Shown piece by piece: positions 8,201-13,877 of a stretch of DNA of 13,877 nucleotides. The position numbers were made by a program. Every line of letters begins with the position of its first letter. Within the stretch, counting starts at the first letter, position 1. Source of the DNA: a virus (lineage: Duplodnaviria; Heunggongvirae; Uroviricota; Caudoviricetes); IMG/VR virus record IMGVR_UViG_2671181033_000010; one strand, 5' to 3'.

Positions 8201-11200
8201 TGATATTTCGCCAGCGTGCACGGCTCTCTCTAACCGCGTCCTTAGCTTCCTGCTGGTTCTCCGCAAGCCATTTAATCCACTCACGCCCCGCTGCGCCGTG
8301 GTTTTCTTGCCATGCCGCCTTCAATGCGTCAGCGTGATCCTTTCCGTTGCTGTATTCGTGTAACTGCGTGGCTTTTTGAATCGGGATATTGAGCAGGCGC
8401 ACAAGTTGCCCGACCTTAACTTTTATCCCCGACGTTTTGAGGTATGTTTCGATATCCACCTCTCCGGTGCTGATAGCAACGGTCCGCCAGTTTTTCAGCT
8501 CTCTGTTGCCGCCGTCCTTTGCCCCCTGTAATTTTCCGAATCCATTGAACAAAGTGTATGAGGATACGTACACGTCACGGGGGCTTCCTGCCTGCCCTAT
8601 CTCGTCCAGTGGAAGGAGTCCGTGATTGTGTGCTTCTGCTTCGTTAGCTATCCCCAGCGCCGTTCCGTACCAGGTTAATCGCAGCGCCTCAGGATCGCCC
8701 CACAAGCTCGACGCGATGCTCTGCGTTGTGGTCTTGCCTGCTGTGGATTGCTCGAAAAAATGCACGCCAAAACCATCAGCGCCTGTCAGCCCGACTAATG
8801 GCGCGGATAATGACGTCGCTATACCCAGCATCATGAACGGATTGCCACCAGCCAGCCGCGCCACGCTGTCGCGCCAGCTTTCCGCCGTTCCTGCCACGGA
8901 ATAACCGTTAATTGCGGCACTTTTTCCGGTAAACAAAACGGGCTTGTCAGATTCGCCGATAACCGTACCGTCCGGCATGATGTACGCGCCAAAATGCCAG
9001 CCAGCCTTCGAGCTTAAGTGCCATTCCTCATGCTGTCCGCCTAACTGCATCCAGTCAGCCAGGGGGATCCTGTGTTTTCCGTTTGTCGTGACTTTAAGCC
9101 CGTTGGCTTTCAGTAATCGCCAGCCGTCAGTGTCGCCTATTCCGCAGCAAGGCACAGCCATAGTGACAAGCCGATTTGTTGTCGAATCTGTCCAGCGCAT
9201 CACGCGGTAATGCTCGTTACCAATGACACCTGAACCGAGTAATTCAACGGAAGAACACAGCCATTCGAACGGACGGATAATTTCGCCAGATTGCTTATCA
9301 ACCTTTGGCGTCACCCAGTAAACGCCATCAGGACGGCATTCAACGCGGGGTTTTAATTCGTCATCATAATTTCCGGTGAAATTTGTCTTTGCCGGAAGAT
9401 TGATCACCAGGCAGTTGCCGCGTTCCGCATCATCCTTCAGTCCAGCCATGCGCGGTGTCCAGTCCTCCGGCTGCTGGTCAACAAAGCCGCTGTAGCAACG
9501 TGCCTCCTTTACACCCGCCACCGCAAGCAGTGTTGCTATCTGTAAAAGTGCTGTCTCTGATATTTCACCAGCACGATAAACGCGCACGTAATTGCGCCCT
9601 TTATCGATGATTTTCGTGTCTTCCAGGCTCGCCAGTTGTTTCGGTCCAAGAATAACGGGCGGTGTATCATCTGCTGCAATATGCTTTCCGGCCCATTCGC
9701 TCCACTCTTTCGCATGTGCCCAGGCATCACTACCCGCAAAGATAATGACTTCGGTCATTTTGTCTTTCGGCTGTTTTTTTAAATTCGGTGCGCTTTTCAT
9801 TTCTTGCCCCTGAATGCGTTAATCATGTTTTTCATCTTTCGGATGTTCGCCTCTGCTTTTGCGTTGCTGGCTGGCTTACCGCGCGGCACGGACTGCACCA
9901 GAGAAAAATCACGCGCGAACTGATACAGCGGCATTACGCAGTCATAGTCATAGCCTTCACGGCGGTAGGCGATGCGGCGTTCTCTCACGCTGATAATCGT
10001 CACGATGCCGCCGTACTTATCGCGGTAAATATCCCTGCGCATAAATTCAGGACGAGCGGGGCCGCTGGCATTAACACCAGTATTTTTCATTCCCATATAA
10101 TTAAATTCCGTTTGTGTGGTGTTTTAATTCGTGAATTTTTTCTAACGCTCTGTTTATCTTGCTGGTCGAAATATCCAGTAATTCAGAAATGGCAAAGTTC
10201 AGTCTTGCCGTTGACTCGTCACGCTCGTGATTTGTCAGCGATTCAAACCAGACGTTAATAATCTCACTTACGGCATTGTTGTAAGATATTGCGCTTTGTG
10301 TGAGTTCATTCAGTTCATGAATCACGCGCTCATTATTGTTCATTGTATTGCTCTCCCTCCGCTATTAACCATGCCGACACATTGCCGGAAAGACGCGCCA
10401 GAAGACTGGAAATCGCGGATATATCGGCATCCGTAAGTTTGTCAGGGCATACCTCAAGAAGGCGGCAAATGATTTCAACCTGCTGCGCTCTTTCCGCAAT
10501 TTCGTTTAATGTAAACTCCTGCATTACTGCACCCCCTTAATTTCATGAACGGCGTGGATAATTACGCCGGATAAATCGGCTTTAGCTGATTTGTTAATTA
10601 CTGTGCTGATTGCAGCCTGGACGTTTTCGGCCTTCACGTTCTGCGTGATGCCAACGGTATAGCCGCGCTTGTTAACAGCACGGGAAAAAACGCGGAAGGT
10701 TTTAAGCACGGCATACCCCCTGACGAATACGGGCGACAAAAATCAGATGTGCGTGCGGCAGCTGGGCGCGTGCTTCGCGTTCAGTGGCAGCGGTAACGGT
10801 GAATACATCAATGTTGCTGTGGTGGCACTGCATAAAGCGCCAGACAAAGTAAGGGCGTGCGGATACAGCCATGTGAAAGGCTCCTACAGTAATTTTAAGG
10901 AGTCTCGCTACTACGCTGCTAAACGGGGTGGCGAGACGTAACAGGGTTAGCAGACTGGTACTGTAGGAACCAGCGAGCGCAAAGGCTCCCCCGTTACGCC
11001 CCGCCATAATGCGGGTATGGGTAGGTTTACGGACACAAAAAAACCGCATATCGGAATGTAAGCGGCTGTCCGCTACAGTATTCAGGCTGCTAAACCCGGT
11101 CGCCATGTGGGCGACTCCGGCATCATACAGCCCGAAAGAAGAGGCGATCAACATGTTTTTATCCATGTGATGCCTCCTGACGGATACGGGCGGCGAATAC

Positions 11201-13877
11201 AGCAACGCAACCTGACGGGCAACGGTTACGCGCTTCGAGTTCCGTCCAGGCGGTTACGTGGATGATTTGGGATTCTGACGCGCCAAAGATGATAAAGCGC
11301 CAGACAAAGTAAGGGCGTGCGGATACAGCCATGTGAAAGGCCTCCTTGTACTGTTTTAAGGAGTCACCGCTGGAGTTCCTACGCTCATAAAGGGCGGTGA
11401 CGCTGGCGGGGGTAGGAATACCGGCGTACAAGGAAACCGGCCAGCCTTTCGGCTGCCCCACCAGCGCCACCATAGATACAGTACGGGCCTTGCCGCTGGG
11501 TATGGTTGCGCGATGGCATGACACAAAAAAAGACGCTGGGCGCGCCTGTGTCGCCTTGTACTGATTAAACGGGTTCCTACGCCCGATCCCCGTTTTATAA
11601 GGGATAACCTCAGTATATGCCGCTTTTTTGCTTAAGTGGTCGGATGTGTTGCGAGAGAAGTTTGTGCGAAAAATACCTGCGTTTTCTTTGAAAGCACATA
11701 ATAACATCACGTTATTTATGTTTATGCAGTATGTCGCAAAGCGACCTGAATCATCACGCAAATTACAACCATAAAAAATACCTGTGCTGTGATATGAGGT
11801 ACTACAGCGCACCGCTTTACGGGTACAGACAATGACAAATGAAGAACTACAGGAAATCGCATTATCCATACTTGAGCGACAGCGCGAAAAAGTACGCCTG
11901 GAACGCGAGTCTTTGCTTAATCCCTCTCCTCTCACCAGACCAAAACGATTTGCGCTTGAGGCATTTCTGGACAAATACCCACGGCGATTAATCTCGCCTA
12001 AAAACCGATAGCGATCCGCTTTTGCTTCTCTGACTCCATAAAACGAATAACAACCATCAGCGCCGTGGTGTGAGGTGCTGCGTCGCTCCGCTGTACAGGA
12101 AATAAGTATGGATTTACCACCAGAAGATGAGAAATTTTTACGACAACTACAACACCAACTACTCATGGATGCCATTGTCGAGCAGCAAACAGGGAGCAGC
12201 CCCATTGATTCATCGCTGAATAAAAAGGCCGCCTCCCGTTTTATTGAAAACAGGATAAGGCGCGGAAAAACATGTGATGACGAGTCAAAGGCATCACATA
12301 CAAAAGCTAAAAAATTTGCCCTTGAAGATTTTGTCGAGAAATACCCACGGCGGTTAAAAGCCACTAAAAACCGACCGCCTGGCTGATAGCCTTGTCCACC
12401 AGCTACACTCATGGCATAGTTGGTGATGCGCTTGATTTCCTTTATCTCCACTGGCGACCCTTTCGTGGTCGCCTTTGTTTTGCCTGCCATTCCTGCATCA
12501 TGCGGATATTCGCGCCGTACAGGGCCACCAGCGCGATAATTTAATAAAACCTCCTTCTGATAATGCTTAACTTGTTTCATACGCTCAGCAGCGAAATGGC
12601 TCACGATATGGTGCATGTAATCAGAATGGTTGAGGCTCAGTTGTGCGAACGTATCCGCCGTGTCGATGTACAGGGCGGCAGCGTTGCGGATGTCAGGCAT
12701 GTTCATGTTCTCCCAGACGACGGGCCAACCAGCGCTGGTAATCATCGGTGAGTTCTGTGAAAAGATTATTTATTGCATCAGTTCTCCATTCCTCAGCTTC
12801 TGACTTAAATTTATCTTTATCACTTATGTCTATAAGAAAATCATCAAAATCAGAGTCTTCGAAAATATCTTTATCTGCAAAATTATTCCAATCCTCCCTT
12901 AACTGATCCAATGTGGACTCTTTAAATCCACAAGGATATACAGAGTAGGCCTTTTGTCCCTGTTGAAGAGTTACACCCCCCATTGTGTGAATACATAAAG
13001 CAACATATGGGGCGCAAGCTGTGCCATACTCCTTAAGAAAGTTAATTGCCGTATCAGATAATATTTCGCAAAGTGCTTGTTCGTATTTAATTTGTTCCTC
13101 ATGCGCACTAAACCATAAAAACACGCGTTCGTAGCGATAAGCATCGTTGTTAACTAATTCCGCACCAGGAGTACCTATTCCTGATGTATCGATAGCAATT
13201 GCTTTAACCGTATCAAAATCAGCAGAAAACCACTCACCAGAACGGCGTTCTGATGTAAGTTTTGCATGAATAGCTAATTCGACTTGTCCGTAATTAACAA
13301 ATGGCCCTAACACCTCGACTTTAGTGATTACTATGCCGCTACCAGTGGATAGCTGTTTCATTCTGGCTGAAACATTTCTGGTTTTTCCAACCTTAACTAA
13401 TCCAATGTCAGAAAGCGCCACATAAATATAACCGCCTTCATGATTGGGAGGGATAACATAATTACGCATGATTCACCCCCAGAGACGGCGCTGACGTCAT
13501 CAGGCTGGCGAACGTCTCCATGCGGCGGGCAACCTCCCGCACCGCTTCGGTCGGTGTCATGCCGCTCTGTATCGCCTCGTCAAATGCTGCCTGCTCGATT
13601 TTCTGCATGACTATCAGTAAGCCTAACTGTTGCTCGCTGGCTGTGCTGCGTTCTCCAGCCACCAGACCTGTAACACGGTTCTCTGCGCGTGCCAGATTAA
13701 TGTAATGGTGACGTTCTGCGCCCAGTGCTTTGAGTCCGTCACGGCTTTCGTGATAGCCTGGCAGATATTCGCGGCGGACTGGTTCAGCGGCGCGATGCTT
13801 CGCGAATGCCTTTGTAACATCCAGCTTGAACTGGTTGAACCGCCCCGGGTTTCCTGGAGAGTATTTTATCTGTGAAC

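Follow-up and report, generated by a model that had tools for sequence, protein, structure and literature searches.

Two probable C4/CI-type antisense-RNA immunity cassettes of different specificity in series on a degraded Escherichia coli island

The DNA analysed here, referred to below as the window, is the whole 13,877-nt stretch of IMG/VR virus record IMGVR_UViG_2671181033_000010 (Caudoviricetes), a degraded island also found in Escherichia coli. On its minus strand, which carries all genes of interest, lies a region that we read, with a probability of about 0.8, as two complete C4/CI-type antisense-RNA immunity cassettes of different specificity, placed in series. Cassette 1 (W-1) contains the RNA C4-1 and the Icd-like open reading frame (ORF) icd1, and cassette 2 (W-2) contains C4-2 and icd2. 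Sequence comparison indicates that leader, C4 RNA and Icd-like ORF form a conserved three-part cassette in P1, P7, P4 and islands. The identity and anatomy of the parts, their structure, the positional complementarity of their sites, covariation and orthogonality were observed directly. An initial annotation of this DNA had proposed an immunity-type module equivalent to P4 cI and P1 c4, and Rfam C4 matches together with BLAST matches to P1, P7 and P4 bore this out. C4/CI is a classic form of antisense-RNA immunity that is usually described as one RNA per element; the modules compared here make up a natural set of orthogonal RNA locks.

C4 RNAs and their target sites

Both C4 RNAs matched the Rfam C4 model (RF01695, gathering score 45 bits) over its full length (1-87 of 87; Table 1). 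C4-1 was 72% identical to P4 CI and 77% identical to the RCS47 copy, and adopted the family structure with a folding energy of -51.5 kcal/mol; C4-2 was 68-69% identical to the C4 RNAs of P1 and P7 and folded at -45.0 kcal/mol. In the minimum-free-energy folds of both RNAs a long closing stem surrounded two hairpins and a single-stranded junction, and the CACC tail after the closing stem was retained in each. Analysis of 21 sequences revealed double (compensatory) changes at 15 of the 23 consensus pairs. C4 and CI are among the substrates of RNase P (PMC5499578), and by analogy with P1/P7 C4 and P4 CI both window copies would be released by this enzyme and would repress the downstream operon in trans. 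A third inverted repeat (GTCACCGC/GCGGTGAC) allows the 3' strand of the C4 closing stem to pair with a segment 13-19 nt downstream, with a2 in the loop. This alternative pairing (11364-11401 and 10902-10937) covaries in ten sequence types, including P1 and P4, and might serve to switch processing or termination.

The loop of the second C4 hairpin was taken as b' and the junction behind it as a', and the flanks were searched for perfect complements at fixed offsets. The P1 record annotates a1, b1, c4, a2, b2 and icd, and the parse recovered all four P1 sites exactly. Loop-only complementarity at fixed offsets was used instead of whole-hairpin duplex energies, which were uninformative, being dominated by stem nucleotides. 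Complementarity to C4-1 extended over 9 nt at b2, 8 nt at b1 and 7 nt at both a2 and a1 of cassette 1; the corresponding values for C4-2 in cassette 2 were 10, 8, 7 and 7 nt. In each cassette b2 overlapped the Shine-Dalgarno (SD) sequence of the Icd-like ORF, and in cassette 1 a local CUCCUU/AAGGAG hairpin presents b2. The inverted repeats, SD sequences and hairpins followed by runs of seven T (T7 runs) listed in the initial annotation are all present. The repeats at 10879-10891/10959-10971 (13 nt, 92%) and 11343-11351/11426-11434 (9 nt, 100%) are the C4 loops with their targets. Inverted repeats of 8-10 nt are unremarkable alone, with 40 such pairs within 1.5 kb; what lifts the signal beyond chance is the covariance-model E values (1e-12 to 1e-15) together with complementary sites that co-change at the same positions in 28 modules.

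Of these 28 modules, 24 came from E. coli islands or from the phages P1, P7 and P4; the remaining four came from further phages. All four sites lay at offsets homologous to those of P1 and P4 in both window cassettes and in the 26 further modules, and every module (n = 28) had its own matching set of sites except L016, in which the b2 match was only 4-5 nt. Covariation was found in the C4 pairs and in the target sites alike. When 11 near-identical P1-type scaffolds were aligned, variation was concentrated in b1/b'/b2 and a1/a'/a2, with each set co-changing: the scaffold is conserved, with hypervariable a' and b' elements, and each change in these is matched at four target sites.

All-against-all comparison revealed b'-b2 runs with a mean of 8.2 nt for cognate pairs compared with 4.0 nt for non-cognate pairs; a'-a2 runs were 7 nt in every cognate pair compared with a non-cognate mean of 3.8 nt. 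The two window cassettes differ in a', in b' and in all four target sites, and their cross-complementarity was only 3-4 nt, corresponding to the common anti-SD core. C4-1 (b' CCUUGUAC, a' UUCCUAC) and C4-2 (b' CCUACAGUA, a' CUGCUAA) match only their own four sites. On this basis the island has two RNA locks that act independently of each other and a pair of immunity specificities, the latter as suggested in the initial annotation.

Cassette 2 combines a elements identical to P7 with new b elements. In total, 18 combinations of a' and b' were identified among the first 24 modules and four more among the four further phage modules. The full W-2 specificity was also found in the single cassette of an E. 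coli island (L010), and the W-1 b' element in another locus (L019); matching competitors therefore exist. Neither specificity was found with both of its elements in P1, P7, RCS47, a P1-like Punavirus, Klebsiella phage 48ST307, phiKO2 or P4. The idea that the island mimics the immunity of a helper phage is therefore unsupported, as no sampled phage has both elements of W-1 or of W-2.

Table 1. Features of the two cassettes and adjoining sequence (window coordinates)
Feature	Position	Strand	Basis or detail
Cassette 1 candidate -10, TATACT	11612..11617	-	7 nt upstream of first leader hairpin; predicted
Cassette 1 leader, IsrK/seqA-like RNA	11526..11605	-	Rfam isrK RF01394, 51.8 bits (gathering 50)
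Leader 1 sites	a1 GUAGGAA 11574-11580; b1 GUACAAGG 11554-11561	-	positional complementarity
Leader 1 intrinsic terminator	stem 11531-11547; T7 run 11525-11531	-	terminator scan
C4-1, P4 CI-like scaffold	11390..11477	-	Rfam C4 RF01695, 81.3 bits, E 4.7e-15
C4-1 predicted mature RNA	~11393-11471	-	homology to annotated 77-nt P1 C4
C4-1 elements	b' loop UUUCCUUGUACG 11425-11436; a' junction UUCCUAC 11412-11418	-	loop/junction extraction
Cassette 1 target region	11343..11382	-	a2 GUAGGAA 11376-11382; b2 GUACAAGGA 11343-11351
50-bp invariant block, copy 1	11292..11341	-	exact repeat
icd1, 57-aa Icd-like ORF, 174-nt coding sequence	11159..11332, ATG 11332	-	NF033153, 56.8 bits, E 1.6e-15
528-codon frame including icd1	11159-12745	-	open frame
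In-frame extension upstream of icd2	10873..11166	-	annotated 154-aa 'Icd-like' coding sequence from ATG 11166
Cassette 2 promoter-like site, TTGATC-18-TATGAT	11122..11151	-	promoter scan; predicted
Cassette 2 leader, P1/P7-type a1b1	11037..11128	-	75-80% DNA identity to P1/P7 c4 region
Leader 2 sites	a1 UUAGCAG 11087-11093; b1 UACUGUAG 11073-11080	-	offsets identical to P1 annotation
Leader 2 T7 run	11037-11043	-	after long-loop hairpin
C4-2, P1/P7-like scaffold	10924..11011	-	Rfam C4 RF01695, 71.7 bits, E 1.2e-12
C4-2 predicted mature RNA	~10927-11005	-	
C4-2 elements	b' loop UUCCUACAGUA 10959-10969; a' junction CUGCUAA (P7 type) 10948-10954	-	loop/junction extraction
Cassette 2 target region	10882..10922	-	a2 UUAGCAG 10916-10922; b2 UACUGUAGGA 10882-10891
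50-bp invariant block, copy 2	10832..10881	-	exact repeat, period 460 bp
icd2, 56-aa Icd-like ORF	10702..10872, ATG 10872	-	NF033153, 56.7 bits, E 1.8e-15
First downstream gene, 61 aa, unknown function	10524..10709	-	annotated coding sequence, same coordinates

Leaders, Icd-like ORFs and the frames that cross them

Both leaders have the same layout upstream of C4, with two 5' hairpins, a1 in a loop, then b1, and then a terminator or T7 run. Leader 1 gave a weak additional c4-a1b1 match at 11566-11618 and ends in a canonical intrinsic terminator. The P1/P7 leader, to which leader 2 is 75-80% identical, passes the gathering score of the leader family, and the long-loop hairpin and T7 run of leader 2 lie as at the P1/P7 position; a simple terminator scan called the leader 1 site only, and not the T7 site of leader 2. 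Folding energies compared with shuffled sequences were not distinctive (z = -0.6 and -2.0 for the leaders, ~0 for the target regions) and were not used as evidence. The promoter-like site of cassette 2 follows directly after the icd1 stop codon, and its -10 hexamer ends 6 nt before the first leader 2 hairpin. Alignment of 14 leader upstream regions, including the annotated P1 c4 promoter, P4, islands and phages, revealed -10 and -35 hexamers at the same offsets despite sequence divergence, W-1 having the -10 alone. The junction after the upstream icd stop occurs in three unrelated sequence versions (the window and L009-L012), and in all three the -35/-10-like hexamers are kept in place, as is an ATG overlapping the icd stop. 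The conserved hexamers before leader 2 suggest that cassette 2 can be transcribed on its own.

The assignment of the two small ORFs to an Icd-like family was upheld by NCBIfam NF033153 (cut-off 25 bits, E ~1e-15 for both), which matched residues 9-52 of icd1 and 9-51 of icd2; neither short ORF had a Pfam match. The same 174-nt icd1 coding sequence was called by the Prokaryotic Genome Annotation Pipeline (PGAP) in an identical genome. The two products are 52% identical and have MAVSARPYFVWRF and a terminal ARIRQ in common; their start codons are preceded by the SD sequences AAGGAGG (icd1) and UAGGAG (icd2). A weak coding signature was detected for icd2, with 46 synonymous and 92 non-synonymous substitutions and a third-position excess, better than in the other two frames. 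NF033153 also matched P1 Icd and the 65-aa ORF behind P4 CI (E 1.6e-21 for the latter), and the P1 record describes Icd as 'inhibitor of cell division; apparently required for expression of ant'.

A recognisable C4 does not accompany every Icd-like ORF. No C4, isrK or a1b1 match was found upstream of Icd-like ORFs at L009 2454-2651, L010 2444-2641, L011 2449-2853 and L018 1987-2184, even at E <= 0.01; these ORFs may be under a different or unrecognised regulator. In L009-L011 they directly precede a normal cassette, and in L009, L011 and L018 a divergent YlcI/YnfO-family gene lies upstream.

The initial annotation had described Ash/Icd-like genes with nested starts, and in-frame extensions do exist: the 528-codon frame runs upstream of the icd1 ATG, and a frame beginning at ATG 11166 runs upstream of the icd2 ATG. 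It is very improbable that these long minus-strand ORFs, a 528-aa Ash-like-Icd fusion and a 154-aa long Icd, are real genes with nested starts for short Icd-like products. Both frames are open, and Pfam Phage_ASH (PF10554) gave 75 bits (cut-off 26) on residues 377-476 of the 528-aa frame. In this region PGAP also called the 154-aa coding sequence together with an 'ash family' pseudogene, and at other loci it called long forms; a strong SD precedes ATG 11166, whose frame is open in 11/11 related second cassettes, with indels compensated. However, the Ash match corresponds to nt 11318-11617 and coincides with leader 1, its terminator, C4-1, a2/b2 and the first icd1 codons, and the icd2 extension spans the promoter, leader, terminator and C4-2 of cassette 2. 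No Phage_ASH match was found on that extension, and no SD-preceded start codon in the Ash frame within transcript 1.

Substitution patterns in the extensions were also non-coding, with 18 synonymous and 61 non-synonymous changes in the 528-codon frame upstream of leader 1 and 21 and 80 in the icd2 extension, both with flat codon positions. Where the 528-codon frame overlaps a plus-strand 59-aa ORF (ORF59), substitutions fit the plus strand better (30/29 versus 20/39), so that ORF59 explains the third-position variation better. P1 and P7 carry stops in the icd2-extension frame, and PGAP called the Icd and Ash ORFs inconsistently among near-identical loci, in forms that were short or long, frameshifted or partial. 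The ATGs at 11332 and 10872, which the nested-start proposal took to be internal, match the start positions of P1 icd and the P4 65-aa ORF, just after b2; together with the lack of a coding pattern in the extensions and the inconsistent calls, this identifies them as the true Icd starts and leaves nested starts doubtful. The Gifsy-1 orf45, which overlaps a C4-like RNA, offers a precedent in that it is translated, but its nucleotide sequence is conserved and its amino-acid sequence variable, according to the authors (PMC4825925).

The claim of an Ash protein gene was accordingly not upheld. P4 records label the homologous stretch 'put. ash gene' or 'cI gene product' (137 aa), while the P4 immunity factor is the CI RNA (PMC3632133, PMC4825925). 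Judged by sequence, the Ash family appears to be the conceptual translation of conserved RNA genes, derived from the early P4 'ash/cI' ORF annotation. Pfam 'Ash' and many PGAP 'Ash family' or long, frameshifted or partial 'Icd-like' coding sequences likewise appear to be translated RNA genes; the C4-type RNAs themselves were unannotated in the records examined.

The 528-codon frame, which lacks a coding signature over the 1.1 kb upstream of the RNA leader, is partly a shadow of ORF59, with which its third positions coincide; it is also open over 12387-12692. Two plus-strand ORFs, ORF59 at 11832-12011 and a 103-aa ORF at 12075-12386, are paralogous, with a ...FALE-F--KYPRRL end in common, and lie in a ~366-bp tandem duplication (11948-12008 versus 12314-12374, 79%) that is single copy in L013 and L004. 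Substitutions favour plus-strand coding, and PGAP places the minus-strand 'ash family' pseudogene there. No family match was found for either ORF.

The icd2 extension is probably not a protein, and it could instead be a translational bridge. After the opening of lock 1, ribosomes coupled from icd1 would read from ATG 11166 through the terminator, C4 and a2/b2 of cassette 2 into icd2, overriding lock 2 in cis; no useful protein would be made, and lock 2 would then govern only transcripts from its own promoter. Such a bridge is suggested by the AGGAGG and ATG at the icd1 stop, whose 8-nt overlap geometry (ATGGATAA) recurs at the junction of icd2 with the next gene (GTGCTTAA), and the coupling ORF over the C4-like RNA of Gifsy-1 provides a precedent. 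The open frame spans 294 nt in 10/11 second cassettes and 264 nt in L012, +1 insertions of two kinds are each paired with a -1 deletion, and the other two frames contain 1-4 stops each over C4-to-ATG (up to 7 including the leader). The 11 scaffolds are near-identical, though, so that their open frames are not independent evidence; the L012 frame is open although its in-frame ATG lies inside the promoter; and the chance of one given frame being open over 98 codons is ~3% by a base-composition estimate, low but not compelling. We consider the bridge unlikely.

Origin of the tandem arrangement and the host island

The two units align end to end over ~460 bp. Identity between cassettes 1 and 2 was 48% in the leader, 34% in the spacer, 52% in C4, 56% in the target region, 50% in the rest of icd and 100% in a 50-bp block made up of 9 nt of 5' untranslated region and icd codons 1-13. 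Each unit is less similar to the other than to its phage counterpart, P4 CI for unit 1 and P1/P7 C4 for unit 2. The exact repeat of ~45 bp in the initial annotation is thus present but 50 bp long (10832-10881 = 11292-11341), and its tandem duplication stands as two units in tandem, 'duplicated' being misleading at 34-56% identity outside the block. The block is also no mark of local duplication, being conserved throughout the family: it was 47-50/50 identical in 17/24 modules irrespective of C4 scaffold or icd body, and was found in 177/5426 E. coli genomes. On this sequence comparison the array is not the result of a recent local duplication, given the low identity outside a block that is near-invariant family-wide. 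Mosaicism was evident elsewhere, with one C4 type followed by different icd bodies (L003-1 versus L004-1) and identical icd proteins behind different C4s (L014). On the simplest reading of the sequences, the block would be a homology patch for cassette recombination at which arrays arise by unequal exchange.

Some part of the region matched 1027/5426 complete E. coli genomes, and the diagnostic tandem junction (an icd stop followed by the next leader) was present in 46/5426 (~1%). Two C4s were found in four of the fetched loci (L003, L004, L008 and L015) and three in one (L014). In all six arrays, the window included, every member is distinct in both a' and b', and the scaffold that comes first is of a non-P1 type. 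In L014 (NZ_CP027440.1, 1633-2643) the three C4 cassettes are spaced at ~460 bp and each has its own a' and b'; the Icd-like proteins encoded behind the first and the second are identical. A scan of genome contigs with the two Icd proteins, using peptide patterns that were overly specific, gave one locus (Shigella, L002) with no C4, and the exact two-block tandem pattern gave 0 matches in IMG/VR. In the P1-like phages RCS47 and D6 (L020), a cassette-1-like isrK-C4 module lies beside pacB and an ant gene; each genome had two BLAST match places, and more than one C4 module may be present at separate sites. The cassette components are well described in the literature searched, which yielded no account of tandem C4 arrays. 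The parts are thus well known and the tandem heterospecific arrangement is an uncommon variant.

The same exchange could have been neutral, leaving a by-product of unequal crossing-over between heteroimmune islands at the 50-bp block with one working cassette, probably cassette 2, whose promoter is nearer the operon. The contrast between the block and the diverged sequence around it fits this view, as do the sharing of the block among C4 types and icd bodies, the rarity of arrays, the degraded state of the island and the lack of a -35 in cassette 1. Against it, both cassettes retain perfect complementarity at four sites and intact Icd ORFs, each member of the six arrays differs in a' and b', and different combinations recur, which suggests repeated formation or retention. 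We regard a neutral by-product as improbable.

Positions 10500-11900 of the window were 100% identical to two complete E. coli chromosomes; in one of these (NZ_CP027587.1) the entire window sits between two IS3 copies splitting dinD. The PGAP gene order there starts with a GIY-YIG nuclease, the 'ash family' pseudogene and two 'Icd-like' coding sequences, continues with three small hypothetical genes, DUF4222 and a DUF927 primase-helicase, and ends with SSB, a ProQ/FinO protein, PerC-family regulators, a YeeE/YedE transporter and a Q-family antiterminator. An integrase and a helix-turn-helix regulator are encoded upstream in related loci, and this, together with the gene content of the window, identifies the window as a degraded integrative satellite-like island of the P4-like or phage-inducible chromosomal island (PICI)-like kind, with the cassettes at the head of the replication operon. 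The icd2 stop overlaps GTG 10709, at which the 61-aa gene starts (GTGCTTAA overlap), so that translational coupling is predicted; this gene heads an operon that runs to DUF4222 and the DUF927 primase-helicase (7662-9800).

The same island encodes the Q-family antiterminator at 1680-2078, the ProQ/FinO-domain RNA-binding protein at 5941-6387 and the PerC-family regulators at 4166-4735, all on the minus strand. A FinO-type chaperone beside antisense RNAs is suggestive, and the Gifsy-1 IsrK locus controls a toxic Q-like antiterminator, AntQ. Positions 5099-5224, inside a plus-strand ORF, are an assembly gap in which 89 N (5099-5187) precede 37 G (5188-5224), with GGCGTTCGTCGAAAGGTGGCGCGTTATGGCCTG directly duplicated on its flanks; this resembles a scaffolding artefact.

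Several observations weigh against two complete, separately specific cassettes. Leader 2 scored below the gathering thresholds, with 35.7 bits for isrK (versus 50) at 11037-11115 and 32.4 bits for c4-a1b1 (RF03163, versus 46.7) at 11079-11128, and cassette 1 has a -10-like hexamer but no good -35. The C4-2 b' hairpin (GGUUCCUAC, 10963-10971) is a 9-nt perfect complement of the cassette 1 a1 site (11572-11580) and also has an 8-nt match to cassette 1 a2, which was not seen in other arrays; this may be cross-talk or chance, and orthogonality may be imperfect. The icd frame is open across C4 in island and P4 modules, an SD and ATG sit on the icd1 stop and 1-nt indels are compensated, so translation through cassette 2 is conceivable, if improbable. 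The island is degraded (the window lacks an integrase and is flanked by IS3 at both ends), and one lock or both could be idle. Lastly, all function is assigned by homology.

Two cassettes in series are our preferred reading. Stacks of two or three cassettes ahead of the replication genes in E. coli islands offer a possible case of multi-specific immunity or serial regulation among competing satellites. A more far-reaching proposal, which we put forward tentatively as possible rather than probable, is a selected modular 'RNA immunity array', in which islands stack interchangeable lock cassettes, each made up of a decoy leader, an antisense RNA and the target of that RNA, via the 50-bp block and gain multi-specific immunity and serial locks on replication, with an in-frame bridging ORF. 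If so, the island would be immune to several competing satellite or phage specificities at once, its replication operon would lie behind independently addressable serial locks, and the bridging ORF would carry ribosomes from an upstream lock, once opened, through the one that follows.

Proposed mechanism and comparison with known systems

Work on the P1 c4 and P4 cI mechanisms is said to include that of Citron & Schuster 1990, Biere et al. 1992 and Briani et al. 2000. By homology with these two systems (summarised in PMC3632133, PMC4825925 and PMC5499578), transcription from a sigma-70 promoter would produce a leader with the decoy target copies a1 and b1 and would mostly stop at the intrinsic terminator, giving a short IsrK/seqA-like RNA. 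Read-through transcripts would contain the ~79-nt C4 RNA, which RNase P cleavage and trimming at the 3' end would release. C4 would then pair, through its single-stranded junction a' and loop b', with a2 and b2 downstream, where b2 covers the SD of the Icd-like ORF. With the icd ribosome-binding site blocked, coupled translation of the following genes would stop, and the resulting termination and polarity would keep the replication genes off. Pairing with a1 and b1 in nascent leaders probably autoregulates C4, and the short leaders may titrate it. Processing, repression and termination in the window cassettes are predicted on this homology. As to the purpose of the tandem arrangement, we infer that with two orthogonal cassettes in series transcripts from promoter 1 would have to pass two locks, and that the island would repress incoming elements of either specificity.

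The closest counterpart of cassette 2 is the immI region of P1 and P7 (a1 b1 - c4 - a2 b2 - icd - ant1/2). The cassette 2 leader and C4 align with it column by column at 75-80% identity, BLAST matches at this level also being obtained with the c4 region of P1-like phages, and the order and offsets of a1, b1, C4, a2, b2 and icd are the same. In both, b2 lies on the icd SD and the icd stop overlaps the next start, and the a elements equal those of P7. In contrast, the b' loop and b1/b2 of cassette 2 represent a new specificity, and its Icd is 56 aa compared with 73 aa. The Ant antirepressor lies behind icd in P1 and P7, whereas small ORFs and a primase-helicase follow in the window, where no C1 operator is evident and cassette 2 stands directly behind another cassette.

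Cassette 1 is closer to P4, in which the immunity region is laid out as PLE - seqA/t1 - CI RNA - seqC - 65-aa ORF - replication operon, with terminators t1, t4 and timm. C4-1 resembles CI RNA (72% identity), the isrK model matches both the window leader and P4 seqA, an Icd-like ORF follows CI, and the controlled operon encodes a primase in both elements. The old 137-aa 'cI/ash' ORF of P4 is the same kind of in-frame extension as those in the window. The differences lie in the a' and b' sequences, in the number of cassettes (one in P4, two in the window) and in the DUF927-type primase of the window.

The IsrK-C4 or seqA-CI system of P4, P1, P7 and N15 has been described (PMC3632133, PMC4825925), and a related arrangement is the Gifsy-1 isrK - orf45 (STnc1160) - anrP locus of Salmonella (PMC4825925). 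There, an IsrK-type leader with its own terminator precedes a C4/CI-like RNA processed from read-through transcripts, a small upstream ORF drives downstream expression via translational coupling, and a Q-family antiterminator is encoded in the same element. A 44-aa ORF (11385-11519) lies roughly at the orf45 position in the window, with no family match and no SD. Unlike the window cassettes, the Gifsy-1 locus has no Icd-like ORF, its coupling ORF overlaps the C4-like RNA, and short IsrK acts as a trans activator (PMC4825925).

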